A stretch of 42,843 nt of DNA, from assembly GCA_965204115.1 (NCBI GenBank), contig OZ241963.1, positions 76,632 through 119,474 of the forward strand, written 5' to 3'. How positions within the stretch are numbered: position 1 is the stretch's first letter; each line of letters starts with the position of its first letter. This stretch comes from Minisyncoccota bacterium (GTDB lineage: Bacteria > Patescibacteriota > Minisyncoccia > Phycocordibacterales > JABAAK01). Shown here piece by piece: positions 11,614-34,061 of this stretch. The notes beneath the pieces are model-generated. The model was not told where the DNA came from and did no database searches. It saw only the letters and a program-made list of their open reading frames with translations. A program made the position numbers and the translations under genes.

Positions 11614-13023
11614 CTATTTTTTCACAACGGTGCTTGCGGTGTCGGTATCTATAACATCGTAGCCGAGTTCGCTGATGCGGTCGCGGAGTGTGTCGGCAGT
11701 TGCGTAATCTTTATCGGTGCGGGCGCGATTGCGTTCGGCAAGTAGGGTGAGGACTTCCGGTGGGATTGCGGCTTTGCCTGCTGCTTCTTTTTTCGGTTTT
11801 TGCAGAATGCCGAGTACGCGATCTGCATAGCGAAGGGTGTTTCTTTTGACTATCGGGGTGAGGGAGGTGTCGCGCGCGATGTCGTGCATGACCGCGAGCG
11901 TTTTCGCGGTGTTGAGGTCGTCGGCGATTGCCGCGTCAATTGCCGCGCAGTGCGTTGTGTCACGCTCGGTGTTGAGGTATGAAAAGAGTGTATGAGGCAG
12001 TGCGGTATATTCTTTTTGGAGTCGTTGGAGTGCGGTTTGGGCGGCGCTGAGCGCATCAAAGGAGAATGAGAGTGGTGTGCGGTATGATGCCTGTAGGAAT
12101 AGGTAGCGGAGCGCGAGCGGGCTGTATTCGCGCTGTATCAGGTCGTCAATAGTGTAGGTGTTGTTGAGTGACTTTGATAGTTTCTCGTTGCCCATTGTCA
12201 GAAAGGCGACATGCATCCACAGATTTGCGAATACTTCACCGGAAGCGCCTTCGCTCTGTGCGATCTCGTTGTTGTGATGGACGGTGATGTGATCCATGCC
12301 GCCGGTGTGGATATCTATGGTGGTGTCGAGCAGTCGCATTGCCATCGCGGAGCATTCTATATGCCAGCCGGGGAAGCCGCGACCCCATGGCGAATCCCAC
12401 TCCTGTTGGCGGGTTACTCCTTCGGGGGTTCGCTTCCACAGAGCGAAGTCCTGAGGATGTTTTTTGCCGGCGACTTGCTGTATGCGTCCATGCTCGTTGC
12501 TCTCCTCGGTGTTTGGTAGTCCGAGTGCGCCGTAGGGTTGGTATGCTTGGGTGTCAAAGTAAATACCATCTGCGATATCATAGGTGTACCCTTTTTGCTC
12601 CAGTTGCTCAGTCAGCGCGATCTGCTCTTGGATGTAGCTTGTCGCGCGCGGGAAAAGGTAGCGATGCGTTTTAATGTGTAATCTTTTCAAGTCGGTGAGG
12701 AACAGGTCGCCAAAGCGCCGCGTAATCGCTTCCGCTGATTGGTTTTCCTGTGCTGCCTGTTTTTCTACTTTGTCCTCGCCCGCGTCTGCATCATCGGTGA
12801 GGTGTCCGACATCAGTGAAGTTGATCACATGCTTCGGGTGATAGCCGAAGTGACGCAAAGTGCGGTTGAGGGTGTCGGCGAAGACATAGGCGCGCATGTT
12901 GCCGATGTGGGCGGCTTGGTAGAGGGTCGGTCCACAGGAATAGATGCGCACCTGTCGTCCGACGAGGGGTGTGAGCGGGCGCAATGATTTGGTTTTGGTA
13001 TCGTAGAGTTCGAGGAGGCGCAT
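11614..13023 (-). CDS. cysS: Cysteine--tRNA ligase
   Basis: Motifs YSCGPT, HIGN, DFALWK, PGWHIECSAM and KLSKS. Confidence 0.97.
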   Translation of the reverse strand: MRLLELYDTKTKSLRPLTPLVGRQVRIYSCGPTLYQAAHIGNMRAYVFADTLNRTLRHFGYHPKHVINFTDVGHLTDDADAGEDKVEKQAAQENQSAEAITRRFGDLFLTDLKRLHIKTHRYLFPRATSYIQEQIALTEQLEQKGYTYDIADGIYFDTQAYQPYGALGLPNTEESNEHGRIQQVAGKKHPQDFALWKRTPEGVTRQQEWDSPWGRGFPGWHIECSAMAMRLLDTTIDIHTGGMDHITVHHNNEIAQSEGASGEVFANLWMHVAFLTMGNEKLSKSLNNTYTIDDLIQREYSPLALRYLFLQASYRTPLSFSFDALSAAQTALQRLQKEYTALPHTLFSYLNTERDTTHCAAIDAAIADDLNTAKTLAVMHDIARDTSLTPIVKRNTLRYADRVLGILQKPKKEAAGKAAIPPEVLTLLAERNRARTDKDYATADTLRDRISELGYDVIDTDTASTVVKK

Positions 13024-13079
13024 ATATAAAGTGTGGATTGGGTAGTATACTTACTATACCATAGTGCTATACTTACTGT

Positions 13080-14738
13080 ATGGGTGAAACAAAAAGAAAG
13101 ACGGCTAAGCAGGCAGTCAAAAAAGTTGCGCGAAAAAAGGTGGTGAAGCGGGCGACTGCCAAGCGCGCGGTTGCGAAGAAGCGTACGACAGCGAAACGGT
13201 CAGGAAGGAAGAAGGCGGGCGCGGCGAAAGGGGTTTCCATACGGCGCGTTGCTGAGAAAAAAGATGCCGCGTTGTATAGTGACGATGCGTCGGTGGTTCG
13301 GGAGATGCTCATCAGATCAGCTCCTAAGAGACGGATGAGTGTGGAGCGGTGTATGTCCGGACTCTACAGAGTTGCCAGAGCTTGCCGACCAAGGAGTGGT
13401 GCTGCTGCGGTGGGTATTTTTCTGCTCGGTGTTGTGACTACCCTGGCTGCACTGTTCGGGCTTATATATTTCAATAAAAGTGACATACTGGCGCGGCTGC
13501 TTATCGGCGCTGATACGCTGTACCTTAATGGAGTTGCGATACAGGTTGACCCGTCGTTCAGAAGATTGGTTGCTCATAATGTGCCGAGTGACTTTGAGGA
13601 TGTTAGTATGGATGATTTTTGGGAGGTTTGGCGATACCTTGAAGATTTGTATGTATCGCCGCCGGAAAAAATGACTGATGGAGTGGCGACCGAAAGGGAA
13701 GATTTGTTAGATCGGGATGCACTTCTTACCGGCGCGATTAAAGGACTTACCCGTGCGACGAAAGATCGGCATATAAACTTTTTCCTGCCGAAAGCTGCGA
13801 GTGATTTTGAAGATGAAGTGCTGAATGGTGAGATTGACGGTATCGGCGCATACCTCACTATCAACGATGATGATGTTCTCGAGGTGGCAAAGCCGATTGA
13901 CGGCGGTCCGGCCGACAAAGCGGGGTTGCGCGCAGGCGATCTCATCACGACCATTGACGGAGTGGATAGTTCGGAATACAATTTGTCCGAGGCAGCGGAT
14001 AACATTCGTGGCCCGCGCGGGACAACTGTTGTGCTGGAGATTTACCGGCCAATTCTTGAGGAGGAGTTAGAGATTCCTATTGTCAGGGCTCGTGTGGAGA
14101 TACCGACCGTTGAGACCGAAATACGAGATGGTGTGTTTGTCATATCGCTCTCAACCTTTACCAAGATCACGCCGAAAGCGTTTGGTGTGGCATTGCAGGA
14201 ATTCGCGGAAAGCGCGAACGCCGGCGGTCCGGATCGCCTTCTCCTGGATTTGCGTGGTAATATGGGCGGCATTCTCTCTGTGTCGGTGTATGTTGCCGGT
14301 ATGTTCTTGCCGGAAAATTCTGCCGTGCTCTATGAATACTCGGGTACCGAGACACTTAAAGCATACCGCACGACCAAGCCGGCATTCCAAAACGGTGTTT
14401 TGCCGAAAATGACCGTGCTCGTTGACGGCGCCACTGCTTCAGCTGCGGAGATACTTGCGGCGGCATTACGGCATTACGATATCGCTGACATCGTCGGTAG
14501 CAAAACTCTCGGCAAGGGATCGGTACAGGCAATTAAACCCGTTGGTGATAATAATGCCATTCTTAAAATTACCGTTGCTCATTGGCTCACACCGGCAAAG
14601 GAATCAATCGGGGGAGAAGGAGTTACGCCTGATGTGGATTACTCGGAGGAGTTGGAGGAGCTTTATAAGGAGGATCCGGAGACCGATATTAGTGAGGTAG
14701 AACTCAAGAAGGCAATTGAGCATTTGAAACAGCGGTAA
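13080..14738 (+). CDS. ctpA: S41 carboxyl-terminal processing protease (PDZ) with a histone-H1-like N-terminal extension
   Basis: GIGA PDZ motif, PADKAGL, LDLRGNMGG, TASAAEI and TLGKGSVQ. The first ~60 aa are K/A/R-rich, followed by a TM helix. Confidence 0.92.
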   Translation: MGETKRKTAKQAVKKVARKKVVKRATAKRAVAKKRTTAKRSGRKKAGAAKGVSIRRVAEKKDAALYSDDASVVREMLIRSAPKRRMSVERCMSGLYRVARACRPRSGAAAVGIFLLGVVTTLAALFGLIYFNKSDILARLLIGADTLYLNGVAIQVDPSFRRLVAHNVPSDFEDVSMDDFWEVWRYLEDLYVSPPEKMTDGVATEREDLLDRDALLTGAIKGLTRATKDRHINFFLPKAASDFEDEVLNGEIDGIGAYLTINDDDVLEVAKPIDGGPADKAGLRAGDLITTIDGVDSSEYNLSEAADNIRGPRGTTVVLEIYRPILEEELEIPIVRARVEIPTVETEIRDGVFVISLSTFTKITPKAFGVALQEFAESANAGGPDRLLLDLRGNMGGILSVSVYVAGMFLPENSAVLYEYSGTETLKAYRTTKPAFQNGVLPKMTVLVDGATASAAEILAAALRHYDIADIVGSKTLGKGSVQAIKPVGDNNAILKITVAHWLTPAKESIGGEGVTPDVDYSEELEELYKEDPETDISEVELKKAIEHLKQR

Positions 14739-14748
14739 AAAAAGCATC

Positions 14749-14848
14749 TTTTTCTCCAAAAAACCTTGTAAAATAAGGGATTTAGAGTTGACTTTTCTGT
14801 GTTTTTAGTGTATAATAAATCTAATCTTATTTCAAGTAGGAGGGTGTA
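14749..14848 (+). repeat. Cassette junction A: CAAAAAACC, inverted repeat and sigma70 promoter
   Basis: CAAAAAACCTTGTAAAATAAGGGATTT, then TTGACT(14788)-17 nt-TATAAT(14811). The downstream ~38 nt are homologous to 17041-17079. Confidence 0.8.
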
Positions 14849-14909
14849 CGGATTTGTATTCTGTGCGCTCTTTTTTAATTTGGTTGGAAAAAATACATGG
14901 AGGTAAATC

Positions 14910-15905
14910 ATGTATAGAGTTTTTGTTTTGTTCGGGATTCTCGTGCTGAGTTTAACGGGTGCGAGTATGGCAATGGCAGATCATGTGGTTGAGAGTGAAG
15001 TTGAGAAGTTGAGAATGCAGGTCATTAAGCTTCTTGATGAAATTAGTAAAATTCGAAATCAGGAGGTTTCTTTTGAATGGCTTGATGAAACACCCGGTTT
15101 CCGGTCTGTCTCCGGTTCTGAGATTAGTGGTTTGGACTTGGGAAATTTTGTGTACTACCGTCCGGTAGTGTGGGAAAGCGCCGGTAAAGGGAGTCCGGGT
15201 ATTTACGACCATCGTCATGGACTCCTCCTTCTCAGTAACGATGTTGAGCAAGCCGCGGTCATTTTTAATGACCGAATTATTGGTGTCAAAGACGGATCTT
15301 GTTTTTCGAGCAATTATCCGGATCCGATAGAGGCAATCAGGGTTTATGATCGTTTGTTTCCGGGAATTCACCAGAGGCGCACTGAGCCGCTTCTTGAGAA
15401 AAAAGGTTTGTTTAGGGATGAGGGTCCCGTGTACGGAGACCTGTACGACCATGTGGTCTTTCGGTTGTTTGGCCTCTATCCAAAAACAGATCATGACATC
15501 GTGATTAGGATTGGAGACACTACGATCGGTATCAGGCTTTCATCAGGTCGTCGACGGATGGAGTACCACCGAGAGGCTCGTTTGATGTTATTAGGTGGGG
15601 GTGGTATCTCTCTGCATGGGTATCCGGAGACCTTGCCGGAAGGAATTGACTATAAAGCAGTTGCCCGTACGGAAACCGATGCCCTTGGGTATCTGGTTAT
15701 CTCAGAGATTATGAGGGACATAACTCTCTTGACGCATAGAATGAACTGGGTTGACATGTCAACGGGGCTCGGAGCACCCGCAATACACTCACCCAATCTT
15801 TCTGTTGTCCCTTCGCTGGCCAGAAAGGCCGAACGGCTCTTTTTTGGGGTAAGCCCGGAAGGGAAGAAACTGACAACCTGGGGAGCGATAAAAAATCGCA
15901 AGTAA
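14910..15905 (+). CDS. Secreted hypothetical protein with C-terminal VSPEGKKLTTWGAIK tail (cassette 1)
   Basis: GGAGG RBS, signal peptide ending AMA-D, a short coiled coil and the distinctive C-terminal motif. Confidence 0.85.
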   Translation: MYRVFVLFGILVLSLTGASMAMADHVVESEVEKLRMQVIKLLDEISKIRNQEVSFEWLDETPGFRSVSGSEISGLDLGNFVYYRPVVWESAGKGSPGIYDHRHGLLLLSNDVEQAAVIFNDRIIGVKDGSCFSSNYPDPIEAIRVYDRLFPGIHQRRTEPLLEKKGLFRDEGPVYGDLYDHVVFRLFGLYPKTDHDIVIRIGDTTIGIRLSSGRRRMEYHREARLMLLGGGGISLHGYPETLPEGIDYKAVARTETDALGYLVISEIMRDITLLTHRMNWVDMSTGLGAPAIHSPNLSVVPSLARKAERLFFGVSPEGKKLTTWGAIKNRK

Positions 15906-15922
15906 AATAGCTCTCCACAACC

Positions 15923-15996
15923 AAACAAGCCAAGCGCTTTCAGTGCTTGGCTTGTTTTCTTTTTTATCCAAAAAACCTTTATAATGTGAGGGTTTT
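15923..15996 (+). repeat. Cassette junction B: hairpin/terminator, T-tract and CAAAAAACC inverted repeat
   Basis: AAACAAGCCAAGCGC-TTTCA-GTGCTTGGCTTGTTT, then TTTTTATCCAAAAAACCTTTATAATGTGAGGGTTTT. Confidence 0.8.
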
Positions 15997-16159
15997 GAGC
16001 GGGTGGACTTTGTTATATTTTATGATGTAGTAAATGGTATAATGAAGTTACTTTTATTGATAGGAAGATAAAAGAGTGTGCGTGGATATTTTTGTAATAT
16101 GTTCTTTGTAAACAGATTTTTCTTGAGTGCATAGTGTGCTCTATACATGGAGGTAAAGC

Positions 16160-16921
16160 ATGTATAAGGTTTTGGCGATTGTGATGGCATTTGTGGCAAT
16201 ACTTTTTGCTTTGGCAGGCTGTGAGAGATCTAAATCGACTCAAGACGCTGCGACTGACACGTCGGCGATTCCGGTTATTGAAGAGTCGCATTTTTATGAG
16301 AGCGATCAGCTCAGAGTGGTTCTGCCTGGAGATATAGATACGATTAAGATACTGGAGAAAGCTTCTGATGAACTTGGGAATCCTGATGTTGTTCTTCTTG
16401 AAGCTGAGAACGGAGGCGTGATTCACCGGGATCCTTCGTGGTTCTCTGAGGGACAAAAGGTCAGGTTTTTTATTATAAAAGAGATACGTTCGTGGGGCGC
16501 TGCTTCCCTCACGTTTTATTGGCTTTCTCCCGAGCACTCCCTCTCGGAGCATGTTGAGGAGTTTAAAAAACTCCCGCCGCCGGCTCTTTCCGGTTTTGAG
16601 ATCTTTAAATACGGCACTTCGATAATTGTGTTCTCTTTCGAAAGATCTAAAGAGTCAACAGAGTTTTTGGGCGTGCGGCATAAGACGCGGATTGGTACTG
16701 ATGAGTATGTTCAGGGGGCGGTTTGGTCAACCAAGTCGAATGAGTTGACTGATGGGAAAGAGGTTTGGGATGTTTTCCTCACTGACCCCTTGTCGGCCTT
16801 TGAAGATAATGTTGTATCGATATCTGCGGTCCTGATGACTGAGCTTGGGGATTACGAACTTCCTTCCGAGACGATGATGATCCCTTATGATGTGGGTAGA
16901 CCCTATAATTCTATAGAGTAA
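16160..16921 (+). CDS. Hypothetical lipoprotein (cassette 2)
   Basis: GGAGG RBS and lipobox LAGC-ER. Confidence 0.85.
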   Translation: MYKVLAIVMAFVAILFALAGCERSKSTQDAATDTSAIPVIEESHFYESDQLRVVLPGDIDTIKILEKASDELGNPDVVLLEAENGGVIHRDPSWFSEGQKVRFFIIKEIRSWGAASLTFYWLSPEHSLSEHVEEFKKLPPPALSGFEIFKYGTSIIVFSFERSKESTEFLGVRHKTRIGTDEYVQGAVWSTKSNELTDGKEVWDVFLTDPLSAFEDNVVSISAVLMTELGDYELPSETMMIPYDVGRPYNSIE

Positions 16922-16943
16922 TTGTTTCTTGCTTACATTTTAT

Positions 16944-17079
16944 AAGCCAAGCGCTTTCAGCGCTTGGCTTTTTTCATTTTTATACAAAAAACCCTTGTAA
17001 AATAAGGGTTTTTGACAGTAGACATTTATTAATTTTGTGGTATAATAAATCTATTCTTGTTTAAAGACAGGAGGGTGTA
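16944..17079 (+). repeat. Cassette junction C: hairpin/terminator, CAAAAAACCC inverted repeat and promoter
   Basis: AAGCCAAGCGC-TTTCA-GCGCTTGGCTT; AAAAACCCTT-GTAAAAT-AAGGGTTTTT; TG-G-TATAAT at 17038-17046. Confidence 0.85.
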
Positions 17080-17154
17080 TTTTTTGTTGTACCCTCATAG
17101 CAAACAATGTCACGACCCGAAAGAGGTGTGACTGCATGCCTTTAGGAGGCTAAA

Positions 17155-17826
17155 ATGCGTAATATTTTTGTTGCAATCTCGATAGCTGTGGGACTGTTTT
17201 TTGGTTTGGCGGGCTGTGATAGAGTTTCTAGTCCGCTTCAGGATAATGTTGTGACGCAAGATGATTTCAAAATCCGTCGTGGGGATCGGCTCCCTGGGTT
17301 CAGTAAGGAAATTCGTTATGGTGACGGCAACATCCTTGGTGCCTTGTCTTTGGAGTCCACAGAGGATTTTGAAGTGGAAGGTGTTAAGTTTTCTGTTTCA
17401 CTCAATCACTATGGTAGCAAGGCTGATTGGCGGAATGCTATTTTCTTCTCTGATGATGATGTTGCTATCGAGAACATTCGGTTACGGATAGTGAGTCGGG
17501 AGAGCGACCCTGCCTTAGAAGGTATTTTTTTGGATGACCGCGTGACATTCAGACCTAATGAGGATTGGAGTGAGGTTGTTGAAAGAGTAAATACTCGAGA
17601 CAGCTTTATTATTCCTGCCGGTCAGAGTATTCTTGTGATTCACGGAGACCTTGGGGTTGCGTGGGATTACCTTGCGGGTGCACATCTGCAGTTTACGCTT
17701 GATGTTGTACGTCACGCGGAAGGTGTTATTTCTGAGAAAGACTATACCGATTCCGGTGAATTTTTTTCTGAGGCACGCCGTTTTCTGGGCGTGGAAATTG
17801 TTCCTGTGCCGACTGTAGGGGAGTAA
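17155..17826 (+). CDS. Hypothetical lipoprotein (cassette 3)
   Basis: AGGAGG RBS, lipobox LAGC-DR and a beta-rich mature region. Confidence 0.85.
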   Translation: MRNIFVAISIAVGLFFGLAGCDRVSSPLQDNVVTQDDFKIRRGDRLPGFSKEIRYGDGNILGALSLESTEDFEVEGVKFSVSLNHYGSKADWRNAIFFSDDDVAIENIRLRIVSRESDPALEGIFLDDRVTFRPNEDWSEVVERVNTRDSFIIPAGQSILVIHGDLGVAWDYLAGAHLQFTLDVVRHAEGVISEKDYTDSGEFFSEARRFLGVEIVPVPTVGE

Positions 17827-17844
17827 ACGGTTTCCCCATTCCTT

Positions 17845-17894
17845 GCAGGTCACGTGCTTTTAGCATGTGGTCTGTTTTTTTATACAAAAAACCC
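17845..17894 (+). repeat. Cassette junction D: diverged hairpin plus left half-site only
   Basis: GCAGGTCACGTGCT-TTT-AGCATGTGGTCTGT, then TTTTTTATACAAAAAACCC, after which the homology stops. Confidence 0.75.
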
Positions 17895-17956
17895 GAGGAG
17901 AAAAGATGTGTACAGTGTGCTAAAAGAGGCGGAGGTGTGATAGCATATAACATATT

Positions 17957-18640
17957 ATGAGTATTGTTTCTTTTGAGGAGACAACCAAGTATTATGGCGA
18001 CAATGTTGCGGTGCAGGATGTGTCGTTTGAGATTGATGGTGGTGATTTTGTGACTTTGGTCGGGCACTCCGGTTCGGGGAAGAGTACCCTGTTTAAGTTG
18101 GTTTTGGGTGAGGAGGAGGTGTATTCGGGTGTGGTGCGGCGGGGTGGTATGGATATTTCAGAAATGTCAAAAAAAGAACTGTTGGAGCATCGGCGGAAGA
18201 CCGGTGTTATCTTTCAGGACTTTCGCCTGTTGCCGCGGAAGACCGTGTATGAGAACATCTCCTTTGCTATGGAGGCACTTGGGTATGATGAAAAGCAGAT
18301 AGAGAACGATGTGCCGTATGTACTGGACTTGGTTGATTTGCGGCATAAGGTGTGGGCGTTTTCTCAGGAACTTTCCGGCGGGGAGCAGCAACGAGTGGCG
18401 ATTGCACGGGCGATTGTGAACCAGCCGGAATTGCTGCTGGCCGACGAGCCGACCGGAAACCTTGACCCGGTGAATGCGCATGAAGTTATCAACATCCTGA
18501 AGCAGATTAACAAGCTCGGAACAACCGTTATACTGGCAACACACGATCAGTCGGTAGTGAAGCGTATTAAAAAGCGGGTTATCACCCTGGTGAATGGGGA
18601 GGTTGCGCTTGACGATCCGAAAGGTAAATATATTCTATAA
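17957..18640 (+). CDS. ftsE: Cell division ATP-binding protein FtsE
   Basis: Motifs GHSGSGKST, FQDFRLL, LSGGEQQRVAIARA and LADEPTGNLD; lies upstream of ftsX. Confidence 0.94.
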   Translation: MSIVSFEETTKYYGDNVAVQDVSFEIDGGDFVTLVGHSGSGKSTLFKLVLGEEEVYSGVVRRGGMDISEMSKKELLEHRRKTGVIFQDFRLLPRKTVYENISFAMEALGYDEKQIENDVPYVLDLVDLRHKVWAFSQELSGGEQQRVAIARAIVNQPELLLADEPTGNLDPVNAHEVINILKQINKLGTTVILATHDQSVVKRIKKRVITLVNGEVALDDPKGKYIL

Positions 18641-18642
18641 CT

Positions 18643-19569
18643 ATGGCAGGAACACAACTCAAAAGAACTTTTTATTTAGGATTGGTAAATGTCGTGCGGA
18701 ACTCGTTTGTTTCGTTTTCGGTGATATTTGTTATGACCGTTTCGCTGTTCATTGTTGGCTTTTCACTCCTGTTTGGGCAGGTGATGGACGATGTGACCGA
18801 AGAGTTGAAGAACAAGGTGGATGTGACGGCGTACTTTGTGACCGACACGCCGGAAGAGCAGATACTCGTCTTTCGAGATCGCCTTGAGGAGCTCTCTCAG
18901 GTGAAGGAAGTGTTCTATGTTTCACAGGAGACTGCGCTGGAAGAGTATCGCAAGCGGCATGAGAACGATTTAGATATTTTGCGCGGCTTGGAGATCCTTG
19001 AGGATAACCCATTCCGCGCCCGGCTCTCCATTCGCGCCCAGCAGGCCGGCGATTTTGAATCAATCGTCCGGTTCCTACAGAACGAGGACATCCTCTCTGA
19101 CAATCCGATAACCGTGATTGATAAGATTGACTTTTACCAGAACCGGCAGGTTATTATGCGGCTCTCGTCTGTGGTGGACACTGCGACACTCCTGACCCGA
19201 ATTGTCATTGCGCTGTTGGTGTTCATCTCATTTATTATTGTCTTTAATATCATTCGCCTCATCATCTACCTCAGCCGTGAAGAGATTAAGGTGATGCGTC
19301 TCATCGGTGCGGAGGATTGGTATATTCGCGCCCCATTTTTGGTCTCCGGAGGGATTTACGGATTAGTCGGCTCAATCGTGGCGACGGTGCTACTGTATCC
19401 GATTTCATACTGGCTCTCCCCGGTGGTAGAGCGATTCTTTGAAGGGCAGGGGCTGTTCTCCTACTATGTCTCAGAATTCTTTATGCTCGTCCTCATCCTC
19501 ACCGCCCTCGGCGTTTTTGTCGGCATCTTCTCAAGTTACCTCTCTACCCACCGCTATCTGGACGACTAG
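18643..19569 (+). CDS. ftsX: Cell division permease FtsX
   Basis: Four-TM layout with a large extracellular loop and REEIKVMRLIGA...IRAPF. Confidence 0.93.
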   Translation: MAGTQLKRTFYLGLVNVVRNSFVSFSVIFVMTVSLFIVGFSLLFGQVMDDVTEELKNKVDVTAYFVTDTPEEQILVFRDRLEELSQVKEVFYVSQETALEEYRKRHENDLDILRGLEILEDNPFRARLSIRAQQAGDFESIVRFLQNEDILSDNPITVIDKIDFYQNRQVIMRLSSVVDTATLLTRIVIALLVFISFIIVFNIIRLIIYLSREEIKVMRLIGAEDWYIRAPFLVSGGIYGLVGSIVATVLLYPISYWLSPVVERFFEGQGLFSYYVSEFFMLVLILTALGVFVGIFSSYLSTHRYLDD

Positions 19570-19652
19570 AAATGTTTAAAACAGCAAAACGGCACGCAGG
19601 ATAAAAAATGTTATCATACACCCATACACGCCCATCAGCGTGTATATCACAT

Positions 19653-19724
19653 TGCCGGATCGTCTAATTGGTAGGACGACGGGTTTTGGTCCCGTTAATC
19701 TAGGTTCGAGTCCTAGTCCGGCAG
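19653..19724 (+). tRNA. tRNA-Gln (TTG)
   Basis: TGCCGGA acceptor stem, anticodon arm ACGGG-TT-TTG-GT-CCCGT and GTTCGAGTC T-loop. CCA is not encoded. Confidence 0.96.
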
Positions 19725-19888
19725 CAGATTTTCTGTATGCTTGCTTATGGTGTCGAGAGTTTGTATCATAGGGTGGGGGATTGTCAAGTTTTTTGCTATT
19801 TTTTTGGTGGGTGTGTAGAATGAGGGTTGATTGGATGGTTTTAGGTTTGTAATTTTTTTTTGGTTTTTGATTTGGAGGGGTGTGTGTT

Positions 19889-20242
19889 ATGGCGACCTAT
19901 TTTGGTTTTGCTATTGCTGACAGTATGTTTGGTGATGAGGATTGTACTATTCGGCGTAAGAAAATTTCACTGAGGAGTGTGAAAGAACTGATTGGCGAAG
20001 GTGTTATTTCTTGCGTTAATAAATCGCATACTGCGACGATAGATGCTATTGAAAGAAGATTTGGTATTGCGGTGGAGGTGCCGGAAGAACCTCCGCGAGT
20101 GTCTTTGGCGCTTGGTGATAGAATTATCATTGTGGGGGTGAGAGACCTTCCCCGGCTTACTGATCGGAGAGAGTATTCTAACCGCGAGATTGCGCGGGCG
20201 AAGTTTGCGTTCAGTTTGTATGGTGTCTGGTGTGATTTTTGA
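19889..20242 (+). CDS. Hypothetical protein, distantly DUF1874 (STIV B116/AcrIII-1)-like
   Basis: GGAGG RBS. The pattern ISL..VKELI...ISCV...H.AT...I...FGI.V...RV.L..GD.IIIV...RL resembles DUF1874 as I recall it. Confidence 0.55.
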   Translation: MATYFGFAIADSMFGDEDCTIRRKKISLRSVKELIGEGVISCVNKSHTATIDAIERRFGIAVEVPEEPPRVSLALGDRIIIVGVRDLPRLTDRREYSNREIARAKFAFSLYGVWCDF

Positions 20243-20334
20243 AAGACACCGTTTTTCTTTTCGCCGTCGGAGTTTTGGGTCTCCGTTAGCAAAACCCATC
20301 TATCTATACCGTGAAGTACCATTCACGGTATTTT

Positions 20335-20856
20335 TTATTTGCTCTCGTGGAGTGTTTTTTCCATCAGGTTCCAGAAGCGGTGGGAGTGGTTCATTTCTTT
20401 GAGGTGGCAGAGCTCGTGGACGATGAGTTTGTCGGCTTCTCGTTTGGGGAGGAATATAATTTTATAGTTATAAGTGAGGTTTCTGGTGGATGAGCAGATG
20501 CCCCAGCTTGCTCTGAGCTGCTTTACTCGTATTTCATTGTATGCGAATTTATTTTTACGGTTCCAGTAGGCGACTTTTTCTTCACAGAAGCGTAGTGCTT
20601 TCTCTTTGTGTTTGAGAAAGTGTTCCCGATCGTCAACGGTGAGGTTTTCATTCGTTCCGTATTTTTTTATCATGCTCTCAACGCGCTCTGCTATCCACGG
20701 TTGCTTTTCCCGGACAAACTGTTCAATGGTTGCCTGCTTTGCCCATTTTGGTTTTGTGACGGTTATCTTTCCGCCGACACCGACGGCCAGGTGGAGATGC
20801 CGCGCTCTCGGGTGATGTAACACTTCATACGCTATGGACTGATTCTTGTATCTCAT
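20335..20856 (-). CDS. YgjP/DUF45-family metal-dependent hydrolase
   Basis: Motifs SWGICS, VHELCHLKEMNHS and RFW. Confidence 0.88.
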   Translation of the reverse strand: MRYKNQSIAYEVLHHPRARHLHLAVGVGGKITVTKPKWAKQATIEQFVREKQPWIAERVESMIKKYGTNENLTVDDREHFLKHKEKALRFCEEKVAYWNRKNKFAYNEIRVKQLRASWGICSSTRNLTYNYKIIFLPKREADKLIVHELCHLKEMNHSHRFWNLMEKTLHESK

Positions 20857-28020: not shown

Positions 28021-28698
28021 TTAGAAAGGAACATTTTCTTGGTATTCGATCCATCCTGTTTCGTCGTCCCACTTGCGTAGGCGGGGCGGGTTTGCTGGTT
28101 TTGTGTACCCTGGAGTAAACATGAGGGCGTTGTTGTTAAGGAATCCTCCGCCTGGCGTATGCACTTCAATTCGCACTTCCACACTGTCGTATGTTTGAAT
28201 GTCCTCTAGCACCTTTTTATCAATTCCTATGTACACCACTTCAGGTGTCAAATCAGGGCTTCCTTCTACCGACAAGGTTGCGACTGTTGGTTCGTGTCCG
28301 ATGCCAACCCGTAGTGTTGATCCCACTGATACACCAGGATGTCCTTGTATTCCAAAGACCTCCATTTTTTCGTTTCGCCCAGCGTAGAACAGGCGAGTGC
28401 CGCCGAGTCCCATACCGGGTACCTGTTGTGGGGTGCTGGTTCCAATGATTTTGACTGCATCTGTATAGTGGGTTGATTCGGTAGTAGTTGTTTCCATGCG
28501 TGGCTTTGATGGAATGACATCCTGTGTTTGAGTAGTTGTTTCCATGCGTGGCTTTGATGGAATGACATCCTGTGTTTGAGTAGTTGTTTCCATGCGTGGC
28601 TTTGATGGAATGACATCCTGTGTTTGACCATATTCAGAAATTGCTAGTATTGCGATAGAAAGTCCTACTGCTAAAATGACTGTTATGATTATTTTCAT
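28021..28698 (-). CDS. Secreted/anchored hypothetical protein with a 3x16-aa tandem repeat
   Basis: Start MKIIITVIL lies 6 nt after TG-G-TACAAT; contains (QTQDVIPSKPRMETTT)x3. Confidence 0.75.
   Translation of the reverse strand: MKIIITVILAVGLSIAILAISEYGQTQDVIPSKPRMETTTQTQDVIPSKPRMETTTQTQDVIPSKPRMETTTTESTHYTDAVKIIGTSTPQQVPGMGLGGTRLFYAGRNEKMEVFGIQGHPGVSVGSTLRVGIGHEPTVATLSVEGSPDLTPEVVYIGIDKKVLEDIQTYDSVEVRIEVHTPGGGFLNNNALMFTPGYTKPANPPRLRKWDDETGWIEYQENVPF
28483..28626. repeat. Perfect 48-bp tandem repeat, 3 copies (coding VNTR)
   Basis: AGTAGTTGTTTCCATGCGTGGCTTTGATGGAATGACATCCTGTGTTTG at 28483, 28531 and 28579. Confidence 0.97.
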
Positions 28699-28821
28699 AC
28701 TTGTATTGTACCACATTGTATTAGCTATTGAAGGATTTGTGGTAGGATTTTTGTTTCAAAAAGGGTTGGGCTGTCCTGGTGCAGTGAGTGTTGTTTGAAA
28801 AAATGATAATTTAGTGTCTAT

Positions 28822-29312
28822 AAAAAGCAAGTATCCCCCTAGAGACCGGAGTGTCTACGCAAAACGCGTGTGAATCGGTGTATGTGTCTCTAGGGGGTTA
28901 GTTTTTTAGCTTTTCAGTATCCACTGTCACTTTTTCTCTTGGAAGGCCCTCTGAAGATGCGAGGAGGTAGGTAATTTCTTCCGGAGAGAGGGGTGACTAG
29001 GGTTTTCTCGGACTTGCCATCGGCAAGTGTTGATTGCCCGAGAGCTGCCAAGGGTTTCCCCTCAGGACTCAAAAGTTGAAAAACTAGACTTGCTGACTGT
29101 GTGACCTGGGGTTTTTCCGACCGGCGTGCGGTAGACCCTGCGGTTGGAAACCATGCGTATTGTAATGTTGCGCAGGGGAAGTCCGCCAGGGTCGGTGTGT
29201 TGATCCCGATTTTTGACACACAGTTCTATGAAATAACCTTTTGGTGTTACCTCATAGAACCATGTGTTCTTCGCGGGTCAGCAAGTCGTTCTTTTAAATT
29301 TTCATTCTATCT
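28822..29312. ncRNA. Large structured intergenic element, candidate ncRNA of unknown class
   Basis: Multiple long stems (28835-46/28886-97, 28926-45/28978-97, 29087-97/29277-87 and others) and no credible ORF. The strand is unresolved. Confidence 0.55.
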
Positions 29313-29318
29313 ATTTTT

Positions 29319-29347
29319 ATTATAGTAGGCATTTTTCTTTTTGTCAA
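29319..29347 (-). promoter_or_regulatory. Consensus sigma70 promoter firing leftward into the structured element
   Basis: Minus strand TTGACA-17 nt-TATAAT, a perfect consensus. Confidence 0.8.
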
Positions 29348-29862
29348 ATACTCTTAATTTTATAGGTTTTTTTGTTATAATATCGCCTTGTTTCCGGGCC
29401 AATTTCCTCTGTTTTTCTGTTGTTTGGTTCGGTCATCTAATTCTCTACATAAGGTCGGGATTGTTAGCTTTTTTAACTGTATTTTCTGGCTCTCCAGGAA
29501 GGTGGTTTTCATTGGAAGAGGAGAAGGGAAAGGGCGGGGCCCGGACTATTTGCTATTTAAGGTGTTTGTTGTATAATATACCTTGATTTTATAGGGTTTT
29601 ATTGCGCTGCTTGGGGTTGTTTTTTTCGATTTTGTGTGGTATCATACTGTTGACAAGAAATATATATGTTGTGCTATTGGGCAAAATCAACATCGATTAT
29701 CCCCTTGTAAATAACAAGGTTTTTTAGTATATATTCTCATTTTTCCCCTTAAATACAGTTTAAAAAGGGTTGTTTTTTTGCATATATTGTGGTATGATGT
29801 TAGTGGTTACTATTTTGTTTGTTTACCCAACAAAAGTCGTGACCAAGCTAGAACATATTACT

Positions 29863-30882
29863 ATGAAGATACAAGTAAAAAAATTAGTAGATAAAGCATT
29901 AGAGTCGCTGACAGATCAACAGCGTCGGGTGCTTGTATTGCGTTATGGCTTGGACGGCAAAGGGAAACGAACGCTACAAGAAATCGCCGACGAATACTCA
30001 CTGACACGAGAGCGCATTCGCCAAGTGCAAAACATGGCTGTTGCTACTCTTGGGAAGGATGAGTGTGCCGGTCTGCTTGCTTCTACGATTACCTATCTTG
30101 AAGATGTGATGCGGAAGTGTGGTGGTGTGTCGTCCGCTGATGCATTGTGCGCCAGCTGTGAGTTTGCCTCAAAGGTAGAGCAGAATTACATCCACCTGCT
30201 TCTGATGGTCGGGAATTCATTCTCGCTTTCTGATGCGACTGATGACATCGCGCAGTATTGGTATGTCGATGAAAGGCACAAGCATGCGATTGACGCGACG
30301 CTGAGTAAGGTGCATGGGGATGTTGAAGGTCGTGGCGAAGTGTTGCTCACTGACGAGGATATGCGACAGTTGTTTGAAGGTCTTGCGACAGAGCATGCTG
30401 AGTACCTGCCTTCCTATGATGAGGCAATGAGTCTTTCACTTAAGATGAAGCGGAACCCGCTTGGTGAGTGGGGGCTTGCGACGCACCCTGAGATTGCGCT
30501 GAACGGTCTTGCCGGCTATATTCGCCTGGTGCTTCGTGATGCGGGCGAACCGCTCCACTTCAACAAGATTGCTGATCGTATTGCAGAGTTGCGAGGAAAG
30601 AATTGCCACCGTGGCAGTTGTCACAATGAACTGGTGCGACGAGATGAGTTTATTCTTGTCGGTCGCGGTCTCTATGCGCTTGACAGTATGGGCTACCGCC
30701 CGGGTACCATTGCAGACATTATTGCTGCCGGTATTAAGGAGCTCGGCCCGATGACTCAAAAGGAGATTATTGAGTATGTCAGTCGTGAGCGCCATGTTAA
30801 GACGCAGTCCATTGTGCTGACTCTCGGCAAGAAAGGCATGTTTACGCGAGATGAGCAGAGTCGTTATTGTTTGGCTGTCTAA
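29863..30882 (+). CDS. Sigma-70 region 4-like HTH DNA-binding protein with a C-terminal winged-helix (HARE-HTH-like) region
   Basis: LVLRYGL...TLQEIADEYSLTRERIRQVQ, then GEPLHFNKIA...HNEL..DEFILVGRGLYAL. This architecture is common in CPR. Confidence 0.85.
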   Translation: MKIQVKKLVDKALESLTDQQRRVLVLRYGLDGKGKRTLQEIADEYSLTRERIRQVQNMAVATLGKDECAGLLASTITYLEDVMRKCGGVSSADALCASCEFASKVEQNYIHLLLMVGNSFSLSDATDDIAQYWYVDERHKHAIDATLSKVHGDVEGRGEVLLTDEDMRQLFEGLATEHAEYLPSYDEAMSLSLKMKRNPLGEWGLATHPEIALNGLAGYIRLVLRDAGEPLHFNKIADRIAELRGKNCHRGSCHNELVRRDEFILVGRGLYALDSMGYRPGTIADIIAAGIKELGPMTQKEIIEYVSRERHVKTQSIVLTLGKKGMFTRDEQSRYCLAV

Positions 30883-30911
30883 TTCTAATCGCATTATCTA
30901 CGACTAATCGG

Positions 30912-30940
30912 AAACCCCCTTCCTGATGGAAGGGGGTTTT
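30912..30940 (+). terminator. Intrinsic terminator
   Basis: AAACCCCCTTCC-TGAT-GGAAGGGGGTTTT. Confidence 0.85.
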
Positions 30941-31034
30941 CGCGTGTGCGTGTGGGAGGAATAAGAGGTATATGTTGACAATCTTGCGGTGTGTTTTACA
31001 TAGTATACTGAACATACATTTCATATAATGTCTT

Positions 31035-32480: not shown

Positions 32481-33685
32481 TGAATGATATGCAATATTTT
32501 CATAGCACGACCTGGAAAAGAATTGTCAGTGTGTTGCAGGCGCCGTTGCCGCGTTTTGCCGTGAGCCGACAAGCTGCCCGTTACGGCAGCGCGGGGTTGC
32601 TGTTTCTATTGATTTGTTTGTTTTTCTTTTTTTTGTTGCCGCCCCTTGGGTCGGTGCAGTATCCGCAGGTGTTTATTGTTTCTAGGGGGGAGACGATACG
32701 GGCTATCGGCGAGGACTTGCGTCGTCGAAATGTGATTAGTTCGCCATCGTTGTTTATTCTTTCCAACTATCTGTTTGGTGAGAGGATTGTGTGGGGATCA
32801 TATCACTTTAATAGTCCGAAAGGACTTATCTTTCATGCGCACGACCTCTATGCCGGAGAGCGGAACATGCCGTTGCGAAGGGTGGTCATACCCGAGCAGA
32901 GTGATGCGTATGACATGGCTGATATTTTTGAAAGACATTTTTCTGACTTTGATCGGGATGAGTTTTTGGAGATGGCTTTACAGCAGCATGGATATTTATA
33001 TCCGGATACCTATTTGTTTGCCGACCATTATGTTTCTGCAGAGCACCTCATTCAGATTATGAGAGAAACCTTTAATCAGCGAACGGCTGATTTATTTGAT
33101 TCATATACTGGTGACTTGTCACGGGATGAAATCGTGACCCTTGCGTCTATTGTTGAGCTTGAGGCGAGCCGTAAGGTGGATCGTCATAAAATTGCGCAGG
33201 TATTGCTCAATCGGCTGGAGATTCACATGCCGCTGCAGGTTGATGTTTCGTTTATTTTTATTGAAGACAAGAATACCTTTCAACTGAGTCACGCTGATTT
33301 GAATTCAGATGATCCTTCCAACACTTATAAGTATGCCGGTATTCCGCCGATACCAATTACTAATCCGACTCGTGCGTCTATTGAGGCGGTTATGGATCCC
33401 ACTGAGACAGATGCGCTGTATTTTTTGGCTGATTTCTACGGCAACACCTATTATAGTAGCACTTTTGCAGAGCACCTGCGGAAAAAGGCAAAGTATATAG
33501 ACAGTGTTGTGCGTCAAAAAAATCGCAGTGCTGCCCCTGCCGCAACTGAAGCATCCGGTATTCAAGCAGAGGAGGGGAGTAATACTATACAAAACGAAGA
33601 CGCAGAAAATAATGCTGCTGCTCCGGATGATGCGGAGAAAAGTGTAGCCGCTAAGCCGGCTGATGCGGTATTGGTGCGGGAATAG
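32480..33685 (+). CDS. mltG: Endolytic transglycosylase MltG
   Basis: Motifs GYLYPDTY, LASIVELEA, NRL...MPLQVD, NTY...GIPP.PI.NP and LYF. Confidence 0.93.
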   Translation: MNDMQYFHSTTWKRIVSVLQAPLPRFAVSRQAARYGSAGLLFLLICLFFFFLLPPLGSVQYPQVFIVSRGETIRAIGEDLRRRNVISSPSLFILSNYLFGERIVWGSYHFNSPKGLIFHAHDLYAGERNMPLRRVVIPEQSDAYDMADIFERHFSDFDRDEFLEMALQQHGYLYPDTYLFADHYVSAEHLIQIMRETFNQRTADLFDSYTGDLSRDEIVTLASIVELEASRKVDRHKIAQVLLNRLEIHMPLQVDVSFIFIEDKNTFQLSHADLNSDDPSNTYKYAGIPPIPITNPTRASIEAVMDPTETDALYFLADFYGNTYYSSTFAEHLRKKAKYIDSVVRQKNRSAAPAATEASGIQAEEGSNTIQNEDAENNAAAPDDAEKSVAAKPADAVLVRE

Positions 33686-33708
33686 GGGTATGAAAAAGTT
33701 TTAATACT

Positions 33709-33970: not shown

Positions 33971-33976
33971 ATTTAT

Positions 33977-34005
33977 ATAATAGCATATAAAATCTATTTT
34001 GTCAA
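33977..34005 (-). promoter_or_regulatory. Sigma70 promoter (minus strand)
   Basis: TTGACA-17 nt-TATTAT with an extended TG. Confidence 0.7.
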
Positions 34006-34061
34006 TCCTTTGTTTTACAAGGTCTCTTGTTTTTAAAGAACGCGGTCTATACTATTCAATA

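Follow-up and report, generated by a model that had tools for sequence, protein, structure and literature searches.

The window, a stretch of 42,843 nucleotides from the 662-kb genome (G000) of a candidate-phyla-radiation bacterium, carries three lineage-specific secreted-protein genes in tandem on the + strand, one for a Sec-signal protein (ORF1) and two for lipoproteins (ORF2 and ORF3), and this cluster was probably diversified by duplication and homologous recombination of shared expression and secretion modules. The junctions would be paralogous copies of one module, which comprises a terminator hairpin with its T-tract, an inverted repeat rich in A/T tracts at about -50, a sigma-70-type promoter, a leader hairpin holding AGGAGG, a ribosome-binding site and a signal peptide. 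Such a module may have spread through segmental duplication, and homologous recombination or gene conversion would keep its copies alike and make them mosaic. As the junction copies within the genome are only 80-89% identical, any gene conversion is neither recent nor frequent. What moves and mixes the parts, we infer, is homologous recombination rather than a dedicated recombinase. The first-pass annotation of this DNA had offered such exchange as a fallback, and it fits the mosaic signal peptides and junctions. Each gene would, as the best explanation of the signals around it, form its own transcription unit.

The cluster lies between a ctpA-like gene and ftsEX, and its features, in window coordinates, are as follows.

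13080-14738, + strand: CtpA-like S41 peptidase with a PDZ domain, left neighbour (Pfam Peptidase_S41 2.2e-34, PDZ_6 1.4e-12)
14749-14786, + strand: junction A (family D1), T-tract, CAAAAAACC and inverted repeat AAAAACCTT-GTAAAAT-AAGGGATTT, with no G+C hairpin 5' of it
14788-14816, + strand: predicted ORF1 promoter, TTGACT, 17-nt spacer, TATAAT (11/12 consensus; best in 12500-20500)
14838-14874, + strand: predicted ORF1 5' leader hairpin, left arm AGGAGGGTGTA, then a U-run (terminator-like, 15 pairs)
14910-15905, + strand: ORF1, 331 aa, Sec-type signal peptide (…LTGASMAMA/DH), no Pfam family
15923-15957, + strand: predicted ORF1 intrinsic terminator (hairpin B), then a T-tract (16 pairs; -24.5 kcal/mol, z -7.0)
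15961-15998, + strand: junction B (family D1), T-tract, CAAAAAACC and degenerate inverted repeat, 71% identical to copy A
16035-16043, + strand: putative ORF2 extended -10 box TGGTATAAT, read from the sequence and the junction alignment
16160-16921, + strand: ORF2, 253 aa, lipoprotein (…LFALAG/C), no Pfam family
16944-16970, + strand: predicted ORF2 intrinsic terminator (hairpin C) (12 pairs; -20.2 kcal/mol, z -8.1)
16977-17015, + strand: junction C (family D1), T-tract, CAAAAAACC and the best inverted repeat, AAAAACCCTT-GTAAAAT-AAGGGTTTTT (-12.5 kcal/mol, z -3.5)
17019-17046, + strand: predicted ORF3 promoter, TAGACA, 16-nt spacer, TATAAT, with TG before the -10 box (11/12 consensus)
17071-17096, + strand: predicted ORF3 5' leader hairpin, GGAGGGTGTA … TGTACCCTC (RNAfold of the leader)
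17155-17826, + strand: ORF3, 223 aa, lipoprotein (…FFGLAG/C) with a predicted beta-sandwich body (homology and AlphaFold2)
17845-17875, + strand: predicted ORF3 intrinsic terminator (hairpin D) (14 pairs; -17.2 kcal/mol, z -4.4)
17877-17894, + strand: half-junction D, T-tract and ATACAAAAAACCC, 18/18 bases as in junction C, where homology ends
17957-18640, + strand: ftsE, right neighbour (Pfam ABC_tran 8.8e-34)
18643-19569, + strand: ftsX, right neighbour, 3' of ftsE (ftsEX together 17957-19569)

Extent of homology between the junctions

The 9-mer CAAAAAACC occurs four times on the + strand, at 14757, 15969, 16985 and 17885, as annotated earlier, compared with 0.84 +/- 0.85 copies expected by chance, and four copies were reached in none of 100 shuffles. 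Repeat finding returned the same places as a 38-nt family (D1) with four copies, and the spacing of CAAAAAACC gives unit lengths of 1212, 1016 and 900. Genome-wide, the 9-mer is found 30 times (13 on + and 17 on -), and the flanks of the 26 other sites have no likeness to the junctions. Alignment and the repeat family both bear out the proposed homology of the four junctions. Within each unit, the annotated order also holds: a T-tract, CAAAAAACC with the inverted repeat, promoter, GGAGG, signal-peptide ORF, hairpin and T-tract, with junction B missing from the promoter scan. The two irregular ends are likewise as described, in that the first junction (A) has no G+C hairpin and the last (D) keeps its homology to C only up to TTTTTATACAAAAAACCC.

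Besides the terminator and T-tract, the homology takes in the repeat, promoter, leader and ribosome site, and it extends over about 85 nt that encode the signal peptide. The alignment of junctions B and C runs from the hairpin until shortly after the lipobox (15927-16245 against 16944-17243), and that of A and B covers 14749-14939 against 15961-16191. Over 31 nt, ORF1 and ORF2 are also 90% identical in their ribosome-binding site and first codons (family D6). This extent, over the whole junction and the start of the signal peptide, speaks against the recombinase-driven, non-integron cassette system with the repeat as core site that had been proposed for the locus.

A profile of the 5' module, which was searched in 13 genomes, gave strong matches only in G000 (four) and in a relative, G002 (three). 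Those in G000 are junctions A, B and C and a copy at genome position 165381-165495 before an FKBP-type lipoprotein. One of the three in G002 lay outside the training set (E 1.5e-10), and all remaining matches in the 13 genomes had E >= 7e-4. Elsewhere in the source genome, a terminator followed by TTTTTATACAAAAAAAC lies at 136130, and repeat-only copies lie at 258557 and 279292.

Terminators, promoters and the inverted repeat

In 12500-20500, the terminator-like sites with the three longest stems are hairpins B, C and D, which, judged on sequence alone, are probably strong, ordinary intrinsic terminators. Their reported covariation was reproduced: relative to B and C, D has three double changes plus three G-U wobbles. 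When two copies from G002 were included, 55/55 cells paired and 5 of the 11 pairs changed on both sides, a level reached in 0 of 500 shuffles. Such covariation is to be expected if the hairpins are ordinary intrinsic terminators.

The promoters at A and C are the two best in 12500-20500, each matching 11/12 of the consensus. At junction B, 12 extra bases place the aligned -35 box 12 nt too far upstream of TGGTATAAT; no acceptable -35 box was found there, and the promoter scan did not list this junction. According to RNAfold, a leader hairpin at the 5' end is common to A, C, the 165-kb copy and the ORF2 orthologue of G002. These module signals are candidates for working promoters and terminators in the cell.

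Counted from the start that the -10 box implies, the repeat is centred about 49 bases upstream in A and 53 in C. As RNA, the repeat of junction A folds at -6.7 kcal/mol (z -0.8), which is no better hairpin than that of shuffles. In junction C, A/T tracts are spaced about every 10 bp. The 15-mer core of the repeat has 17 genomic matches at <=3 mismatches, against 12-27 in controls, and is therefore not enriched genome-wide. Three of the 17 have a -35/-10 pair within 25 nt, compared with none in each of 10 Markov controls and none in the reversed genome, and one of these three is a non-cassette site (genome 110653, - strand; window about 34020). At window 29342-29380 on the - strand, TTGACA-17-TATAAT is preceded by a looser, fourth copy, and this promoter too is a non-cassette one. 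Because the core is not enriched, only a handful of sites speak for a general role as a promoter element.

Promoter UP elements and curved A-tract DNA occur upstream of strong bacterial promoters, and the region from about -40 to -62 is where the alpha subunit of RNA polymerase or class I activators bind. The repeat resembles UP elements in being A/T-rich, with tracts about 10 bp apart, and in spanning about -40 to -62, but it differs in its dyad with G+C cores (CCCTT/AAGGG), which is absent from the UP consensus. The repeat could be a putative UP-element-like or regulator-binding site, and a dyad with G+C cores would be better suited to a dimeric regulator. Its position, together with the similar repeats preceding two non-cassette promoters in the window, counts against the earlier proposal that it is a recombinase core.

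Protein bodies and related species

The earlier description of the mature proteins as unrelated is upheld, as BLASTP finds nothing outside the signal peptides, where only those of ORF2 and ORF3 align, and profile comparison likewise. The hhalign probability was 0.2 both for ORF1 against ORF2 and for ORF1 against ORF3, and the alignment of ORF2 with ORF3 was limited to the N-terminal 60-78 residues. The folds predicted by AlphaFold2 for ORF1 and ORF3 also differ. The ORF1 model (pLDDT 68) is mixed alpha/beta with a long N-terminal helix and gave no match to the PDB at E<=0.001, and eight database homologues of this protein are 34-59% identical. The ORF3 model (pLDDT 69) consists largely of beta structure and weakly matches CBM35 and TNF-like jelly-roll folds (E 2.5e-3), and stand-alone homologues of this protein are 74% and 61% identical. 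For ORF2, database homologues are 64% (P0011) and 45% identical, and an orthologue in G002, which lies at another locus, is 44% identical.

An internal part of a 1316-aa protein encoded in the same genome is 34-39% identical to residues 40-215 of ORF3, and the counterparts of that part in six relatives are 25-39% identical to them. In total, the ORF3 body matches an internal domain of open frames of 813-1318 aa in 7 of 41 genomes, G000 included, so that by sequence comparison it appears to share a domain with a giant surface protein. The direction of this transfer can be suggested from the distribution only, and the tree leaves the stand-alone clade unplaced. As for the signal peptides, that of ORF3 is identical to that of P0011, the ORF2 homologue, at 20 of 26 positions, and that of ORF2 matches P0011 at only 7 of 26, though the two proteins are 64% identical overall. 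On these alignments, the signal peptides are mosaic between gene families.

Comparison of the interval across relatives, which the first-pass annotation had recommended, revealed that unit content varies between related species. Upstream of ftsE, G000 has three units and G002 a single, different one, and G004, G001, G003 and G005 have none. The ftsE and ftsX proteins of G001-G005 are 75-95% and 68-90% identical, respectively, and a ctpA-like gene adjoins ftsEX in none of the five same-genus genomes. One unit of G002 has no ORF and keeps its promoter and terminator; over 99 nt, its leader shares 90% identity with the leader of the G002 ORF2 orthologue, and relative to the G002 unit upstream of ftsE its repeat is 82% and its 3' flank 89% identical. 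In the ORF2 orthologue of G002, the repeat spacer is inverted relative to its flanks. Synteny across the genus is poor overall, and variable unit content could reflect general rearrangement rather than special modules.

Competing explanations and known systems

Part of the earlier proposal stands, since homologous junctions do flank unrelated secreted-protein bodies and make the locus modular, and part of it, site-specific mobility, is unsupported. The proposed recombinase elsewhere in the genome has a candidate: a PF00589 search found one tyrosine recombinase, of Xer type, 264 kb from the array, for which a cassette role is unsupported. It passes the cut-off of the XerA model only (247 bits vs 220) and stays below those of the integron-integrase models (140.7 vs 265; 87.5 vs 435). 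No match to PF00239 (serine, resolvase-type recombinases) was found in the genome, and neither the ORF list nor Pfam gave a recombinase ORF in 12500-20500. That the arms of about 10 bp and the 7-bp spacer form a tyrosine-recombinase core site, and that promoter-carrying cassettes were moved upstream of ftsE, possibly by this single enzyme, is very unlikely in our judgement. The differing number of units between species (3, 1 and 0), the absence of a hairpin at A, the homology of D stopping exactly at CAAAAAACCC, within the left arm, and the ORF-less unit and inverted spacer in G002 would suit such movement, and in Mycoplasma agalactiae an Xer-like recombinase does drive lipoprotein switching (PMC2268961). 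However, the homology comprises the entire junction and signal peptide rather than a core site, the arms of A and B are degenerate, with A folding no better than shuffles, and repeats of a similar kind occur at non-cassette promoters. Moreover, units that share one orientation and have their own promoters offer no obvious use for an inversion switch, the only tyrosine recombinase is distant and serine recombinases are absent, and the ORF-less unit lost its coding part only, which excision at the repeats would not yield.

An old tandem triplication, in which regulatory and signal parts were conserved by selection and mature parts diverged past recognition under diversifying selection, is unlikely, although the head-to-tail units have the same part order, the homology enters the coding region, and surface proteins evolve fast in host-dependent bacteria. 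The noncoding junctions, 80-89% identical, stand beside coding bodies without detectable similarity, the reverse of what divergence after duplication would give, and the three proteins have unequal lengths (331, 253 and 223 aa). For the ORF3 body, a domain in another protein is homologous, and each family is 34-74% identical among its own homologues, so the bodies are not unconstrained. Predicted secondary structures of ORF1 and ORF3 differ as well, but the models cover these two proteins only and are of moderate confidence (pLDDT 68 and 69), so that the three might yet share a fold. Very unlikely, too, is that the junction is a non-autonomous mobile intergenic element (MITE- or Correia-like) with a terminator and outward promoter, inserted between pre-existing genes. 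Such an element would provide both termination and promotion, and related pieces are indeed scattered in the source genome (136130, 258557 and 279292), with three module copies in G002. Yet the repeat search found no terminal inverted repeats or target duplications bounding the junctions, strong profile matches are very few (four in G000 and three in G002, not the many copies of MITE or Correia elements), no transposase is present among the locus ORFs, and intergenic insertion would not bring homology into signal-peptide coding sequence.

Diversification by duplication and homologous recombination of the module was also compared with known systems. Integron cassettes are similar in joining unrelated genes in one orientation by imperfect palindromic junctions, in which structure is conserved better than sequence. 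They differ in that the PF00589 search of this genome found no IntI-type integrase with an attI beside the array, only the one distant Xer-type enzyme, and in that the units here carry their own promoter and terminator, with homology entering the coding sequence. Instead of mostly promoterless cassettes ending in attC, with its R''/L''-L'/R' structure and conserved end motifs, two of the three units have 11/12 promoters and the third an extended -10 box, and the junction hairpins are followed by T-tracts and are terminator-like. The attC end motifs are lacking according to the first-pass annotation. The variable lipoprotein locus vlp of M. hyorhinis has a long homopolymer in the promoter spacer, which is not present here.

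The mycoplasma loci Vpma and vlp share several features with this cluster: they are surface lipoprotein clusters in small genomes of host-dependent bacteria, terminator hairpins lie between the genes, and the genes have 5' untranslated regions and signal peptides in common while their mature parts diverge. The common 5' untranslated region and lipoprotein signal peptide ahead of diverging mature parts also occur here, but ORF1 is Sec-type. In Vpma of M. agalactiae, a single promoter is moved by inversions, each gene has its recombination sites at -1 to -72, and the xer1 gene lies beside the locus (PMC2268961). In contrast, each gene here has its own promoter-like signals, all in one orientation, with no recombinase gene near; an adjacent recombinase with both orientations around one promoter, as in recombinase-switched loci (Vpma, Vsp, Vsa), was not found in 12500-20500.

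In the lpl cluster of S. aureus, tandem lipoprotein-like paralogues carry a conserved stretch in all copies, proposed as a homologous recombination site (Tsuru and Kobayashi 2008, PMC2568036). There, the variable parts are shuffled between copies and strains (PMC2568036), and the intergenic region is part of an evolutionary unit that covers two genes, as it would be here; a conserved stretch with variable parts is likewise present here, seen in the 80-89% identical junctions, the signal-peptide identities of 20/26 against 7/26, and the mosaic unit of G002. However, the conserved stretch of lpl lies mid-ORF and all members are homologous proteins, whereas the stretch here is the junction (terminator, promoter, leader and signal peptide), and BLASTP and profile comparison of the mature parts found no homology between the bodies. 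No new class of mobile cassette emerges from the locus. It suggests a known kind of change, module duplication and recombination as in the lipoprotein clusters of mycoplasmas and staphylococci, but with unrelated bodies on the module, which is the difference.

The genomes of candidate-phyla-radiation bacteria are very small, and a life attached to hosts is presumed for them, which raises the question of how they renew their surface proteins. The locus suggests renewal by ordinary duplication and homologous recombination of a shared module, and for a group whose signals are hardly characterised it provides a concrete model, at sequence level, of promoter, leader and terminator. More tentatively, and with considerable doubt, the junctions might be portable homology arms, by which unrelated coding pieces, including the giant-protein domain, would be recruited, expressed and exported at once, and swapped between loci and co-resident strains. 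If so, new surface proteins would arise by a 'plug-in' route free of recombinases, and the ORF-less unit of G002 would be an emptied socket.

Contigs from two public runs of one study, which are a weak test, contained no circle junctions or precise excision. One joint in them runs from 16773 to 17934, with only 37 nt on the shorter side. One contig, of 3396 nt, is identical to the window over 15524-16230 and unlike it on either side, and the right edge of this identity coincides with the end of the signal-peptide coding part.

Layout of the array and homology of its junctions

The genome carrying the window, G000, is a single contig of 661,662 bp with 49% G+C, and three secreted-protein genes (ORF1 to ORF3) are arrayed in it between an S41/PDZ peptidase gene and ftsE/ftsX as follows.

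13080-14738, S41/PDZ peptidase gene, left neighbour
14910-15905, ORF1, 331 aa, Sec-type signal peptide
16160-16921, ORF2, 253 aa, LAGC lipobox
17155-17826, ORF3, 223 aa, LAGC lipobox
17957-19569, ftsE/ftsX, right neighbours

The array is probably a tandem cluster of secreted-protein genes. Its junctions (A, B and C before ORF1, ORF2 and ORF3, respectively, and the half-junction D after ORF3) would be paralogous copies of one expression and secretion module, which comprises a terminator hairpin, a T-tract, the 9-mer CAAAAAACC, an inverted repeat, a promoter, a 5' leader, a ribosome site and a signal peptide, and the cluster would have diversified through module duplication and homologous recombination. 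The first-pass annotation had placed CAAAAAACC at 14757, 15969, 16985 and 17885, and these positions hold, all of them on the + strand. Four copies in the window compare with 0.84 by chance and were reached in none of 100 shuffles, and a repeat search recovered a four-copy family of 38-nt repeats at the same sites, with spacings of 1212, 1017 and 899. Of the 30 copies of CAAAAAACC in the whole genome, 26 lie outside the array and are flanked by sequence unlike the junctions, which rules the 9-mer out as a genome-wide signal; it is therefore the longer homology that counts, not the 9-mer.

The junctions are homologous well past the repeat. In local alignments, B (15927-16245) matches C (16944-17243) from the terminator, across the repeat, promoter, leader and ribosome site, to just beyond the lipobox codons, A matches B over 14749-14939 vs 15961-16191 and C over 14749-14870 vs 16977-17096, and D shares with C the hairpin, T-tract and ATACAAAAAACCC only. 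The pattern of likeness is mosaic: A is closest to C in the promoter and the first part of the leader, the likeness of B to C is in the terminator and repeat, and A and B are 90% identical over 31 nt of the ribosome site and first codons. Within the 5' module, A, B and C are 80-85% identical to each other, whereas they are 70-78% identical to the copies in the same-genus genome G002; for the 3' module, B and C reach 89%, compared with 73-82% between genomes. Such higher within-genome likeness would fit recent duplication or gene conversion, between which the sample is too small to separate. In addition, the signal peptide of ORF3 is identical at 20 of 26 residues to that of P0011, an ORF2 homologue (64% identical to ORF2), with which the signal peptide of ORF2 shares only 7 of 26, and P0014, an ORF3 homologue, starts with MYMYRFF as in the ORF1 family and is ORF3-like thereafter. 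These mixed signal peptides argue that 5' ends have been exchanged between gene families.

The closest described cases are the lpl cluster of S. aureus (PMC2568036), in which recombination is proposed to take place at a conserved segment and one evolutionary unit extends across the intergenic region, and the variable-lipoprotein loci of mycoplasmas (PMC2268961). Neither of them shares two features of the present array, namely unrelated bodies and a predicted promoter for every gene. A limited full-text literature search brought up no account of a cluster of this kind in candidate-phyla-radiation bacteria, although one may be in print.

Predicted promoters, leaders and terminators of the module

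On the 3' side of the T-tracts, the elements follow in the order of CAAAAAACC, inverted repeat and predicted promoter. The promoters of junctions A (TTGACT-17-TATAAT) and C (TAGACA-16-TATAAT) each match at 11 of 12 positions and are the top two matches of the region, while junction B, which is absent from the promoter scan list, is left with an extended -10 (TGGTATAAT) only, because 12 extra bases part TGGTATAAT from the aligned -35. Relative to the start inferred from the -10 boxes, the repeat is centred ~49 bases 5' in A and ~53 bases 5' in C, a position at which UP elements and binding sites of class I activators are found. Copy C carries A/T tracts at ~10-bp periodicity. Folded as a hairpin, the repeat reaches -12.5 kcal/mol (z -3.5) in C and -6.7 kcal/mol (z -0.8), the level of shuffles, in A.

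When as many as 6 substitutions are allowed, the 25-nt core of copy C has 6 matches in the genome vs 1 in the reversed sequence. Its 15-nt counterpart, at ≤3 mismatches, shows no enrichment (17 genomic matches vs 12-27 in ten Markov controls), which rules the repeat out as a general genome-wide promoter element; a -35/-10 pair lies within 25 nt 3' of the core in three of the 17 matches, compared with none in every control. One of these three is located outside the array, at window ~34020 (minus strand), before TTGACA-17-TATTAT. The promoter TTGACA-17-TATAAT at window 29342-29380 (minus strand) has a looser copy ahead of it, and similar repeats are found 5' of TTGAC-type promoters in G003, of the same genus, and in members of other families. 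As copies also stand before promoters outside the array, the repeat appears to be a promoter-associated element at a few sites, and the first-pass proposal that it marks the ends of cassettes was not borne out. In G004, also of the same genus, a short palindrome, CCCTTATGCATAGGG, with CCAAAAC before it, stands right after the peptidase stop codon (L009 2684-2740), which suggests that the junction A repeat may predate the array and be part of the 3' flank of the peptidase gene.

The near-consensus promoters at 29342-29380 and 33978-34037 (both minus strand) face stretches of ~300-550 nt with no convincing ORF, and may drive uncharacterised small RNAs. Rfam gave no family at E ≤ 0.1 over window 28600-34100, and nothing passed the gathering score over 14000-18500; the best Rfam match, a rimP leader on the minus strand, scored 31.9 bits, short of its cut-off of 47, and was taken as chance.

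A 5'-proximal leader hairpin is common to ORF1, ORF3, an FKBP-type lipoprotein gene (165 kb) and the ORF2 orthologue of G002. Its left arm, (A/G)GG(A/G)GGGTGTA, is Shine-Dalgarno-like, and its right arm varies with the pairing kept. It lies at the following positions (L040 and L032 are extracted loci with their own coordinates).

window 14838-14874, shared leader hairpin, ORF1
window 17071-17096, shared leader hairpin, ORF3
L040 ~930-975, shared leader hairpin
L032 ~2300-2345, minus strand, shared leader hairpin

In junction A the hairpin is followed by a U-run and is attenuator-like, while in C there is no U-run. This leader hairpin may serve as an mRNA-stabilising 5' stem-loop or as a regulatory leader of exported-protein genes. 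Short frames of 11-20 codons open from the GTG within AGGAGGGTG in every leader inspected by eye; a leader peptide was not adopted, as this start codon abuts Shine-Dalgarno-like bases.

ORF1, ORF2 and ORF3 are followed by hairpins of 16, 12 and 14 pairs, respectively, each with a T-tract next to it, and their stems are the longest among the terminator-like sites in 12500-20500. The corresponding RNA folds have -24.5, -20.2 and -17.2 kcal/mol (z -7.0, -8.1 and -4.4). The covariation that had been noticed in these hairpins is real: when the three were aligned with two homologous ones from G002, 55 of 55 cells paired and 5 of 11 pairs were altered on both sides, which was matched by 0 of 500 shuffles. 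Such covariation should also be shown by a family of working intrinsic terminators.

Protein bodies

No Pfam family was found for ORF1, ORF2 or ORF3, and BLASTP finds nothing in common outside the signal peptides, in agreement with the initial view that the mature proteins are unrelated. Profiles of 9, 4 and 8 sequences (ORF1, ORF2 and ORF3) gave a probability of 0.2 for both ORF1/ORF2 and ORF1/ORF3, and those of ORF2 and ORF3 aligned only over the N-terminal 60-78 residues. The AlphaFold2 model of ORF1 (pLDDT 68) is alpha/beta mixed with a long N-terminal helix, and that of ORF3 (pLDDT 69) is a mostly-beta sandwich; neither had a Foldseek match in the PDB at E ≤ 0.001, and the ORF3 model weakly resembled CBM35 and TNF-type jelly rolls (E 2.5e-3). 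All three families are conserved individually: there are eight homologues of ORF1 (34-59% identity), two database homologues of ORF2 (64% and 45%) in addition to the G002 orthologue, and two stand-alone homologues of ORF3 (74% and 61%).

At least one of the bodies contains a domain that is also present in another protein. Over residues 40-215, ORF3 shows 34-39% identity to an internal segment of a 1316-aa G000 protein and 25-39% to the corresponding segment of open frames of 813-1258 aa in six relatives, and matches to this domain occur in 7 of 41 genomes, G000 counted. The 1316-aa protein (L037 2070-6020, G000:523069-527019) carries an N-terminal PG_binding_1 domain, and its ORF3-like domain of ~190 aa (residues ~533-725) is kept in all five same-genus genomes and in one of another genus. 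In a tree, the three stand-alone ORF3-type proteins group together as a long-branched clade (100/100), whose position relative to the giant-protein domains is not fixed.

The longest contig is 53,744 nt for both P0004 (an ORF1 homologue) and P0014, and 3,829 nt for both P0003 and P0006 (ORF1 homologues), which is a hint of context only. Searches for related loci by ORF1 alignment found none in metagenome or genome contigs; by ORF2 alignment, genome contigs gave the G002 locus and one weak, unrelated match only, and metagenome contigs gave none.

Variation among relatives and strains

The peptidase gene and ftsX are present in all five same-genus genomes and adjacent in none. A release-factor gene (PCRF and RF-1 domains) lies immediately 5' of ftsE in G001, G003 and G005, and an FtsW/RodA-family gene lies 5' of ftsE in G004, with zero units between. 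In G002, 23S and 5S rRNA genes are followed by exactly one unit and then ftsE; this unit consists of a perfect copy of the ACCTTGTAAAATAAGGT repeat, then promoter-like sequence and a gene for a 111-aa lipoprotein, on whose 3' side are a same-family terminator, a T-tract and ATACAGAAAAATGG. The lipoprotein has the lipobox context GCDRVSS in common with ORF3, and its body showed no BLASTP similarity to ORF3. The number of units upstream of ftsE is thus three, one or zero by species. The first-pass annotation had named one arrangement that would speak against it, relatives with the same three genes in unchanged order and no empty site, and this arrangement is absent from the five genomes; poor synteny throughout the genus weakens what follows from its absence. 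The G000 orthologue of the release-factor gene has another gene directly 3', with no module remnant.

Population data came from Logan contigs of three runs of one study, two of which contain the stretch, with nearly none in X3; none of the runs listed as containing it is recorded as RNA. Over 15524-16230 (707 nt), a 3396-nt contig from run X2 (depth 36.7, ~5x that of the strain of the window) is identical to the window, and it is unlike it on both sides; this tract runs from the final third of ORF1 across junction B into ORF2, where it takes in the signal-peptide part, with its right edge at the end of the lipobox codons. The contig may come from a second strain, more abundant than the first, in which the locus (window 13000-19600) is recombinant. 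All three listed joints have short sides or are low in depth; one, from 16773 to 17934, was found in both runs, with only 37 nt on its shorter side. Together, the contig and this joint hint that strains differ at module edges.

A profile of the 5' module, built by sequence only from six copies, was searched against 13 genomes. Strong matches in G000 were four training copies, namely A, B, C and 165381-165495, the last of which precedes the FKBP-type lipoprotein gene. Of the three in G002, two had served for training and the third (E 1.5e-10) is new, and all remaining matches were at E 7e-4 or weaker. The new copy is an ORF-less unit with repeat, promoter, leader and AAGGAG, followed ~25 nt on by a same-family terminator and T-tract. 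It lies (L063 2235-2511, G002:430734-431010) directly 5' of a membrane-protein gene of >995 aa, and its predicted transcript would be ~150 nt if active. The unit is a mosaic too: the leader matches the one of the G002 ORF2 orthologue at 90% over 99 nt, while for the repeat and the 3' flank the identity to the G002 ftsE unit is 82% and 89%, respectively.

Three other explanations were weighed against a tandem cluster with recombining modules. Plain ancient triplication of one gene would also leave homologous junctions, and we consider it unlikely beside the unrelated bodies. A site-specific cassette system, for which the varying number of units upstream of ftsE might speak, seems very unlikely. 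The genome has a single PF00589 gene, 264 kb from the locus, which scores as the Xer type (XerA 247 bits, XerD 230, XerC 229; integron-integrase models under cut-offs); PF00239 gave no match in G000 and did match in the control genomes. The circular junctions expected to join one CAAAAAACC to the next were absent among the Logan contig joints. A MITE-like element, which could account for module pieces at several loci, is the least credible of the three, strong copies being few and the homology running on into the signal-peptide coding part.

As for the ORF2 orthologue of G002, it occupies a separate locus with the same 5' module, and the spacer of its repeat is inverted relative to the flanks. 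The 7-nt spacer is the reverse complement between species (L032 ~2394-2408 vs window 16991-17005) with the same arms, and the terminator loop TAAAA of G002 (L012 6801-6805) is the reverse complement of TTTTA in loop D (window 17858-17862) with the arms unchanged. Both reversals are probably small hairpin-loop inversions, which are a known by-product of hairpins.
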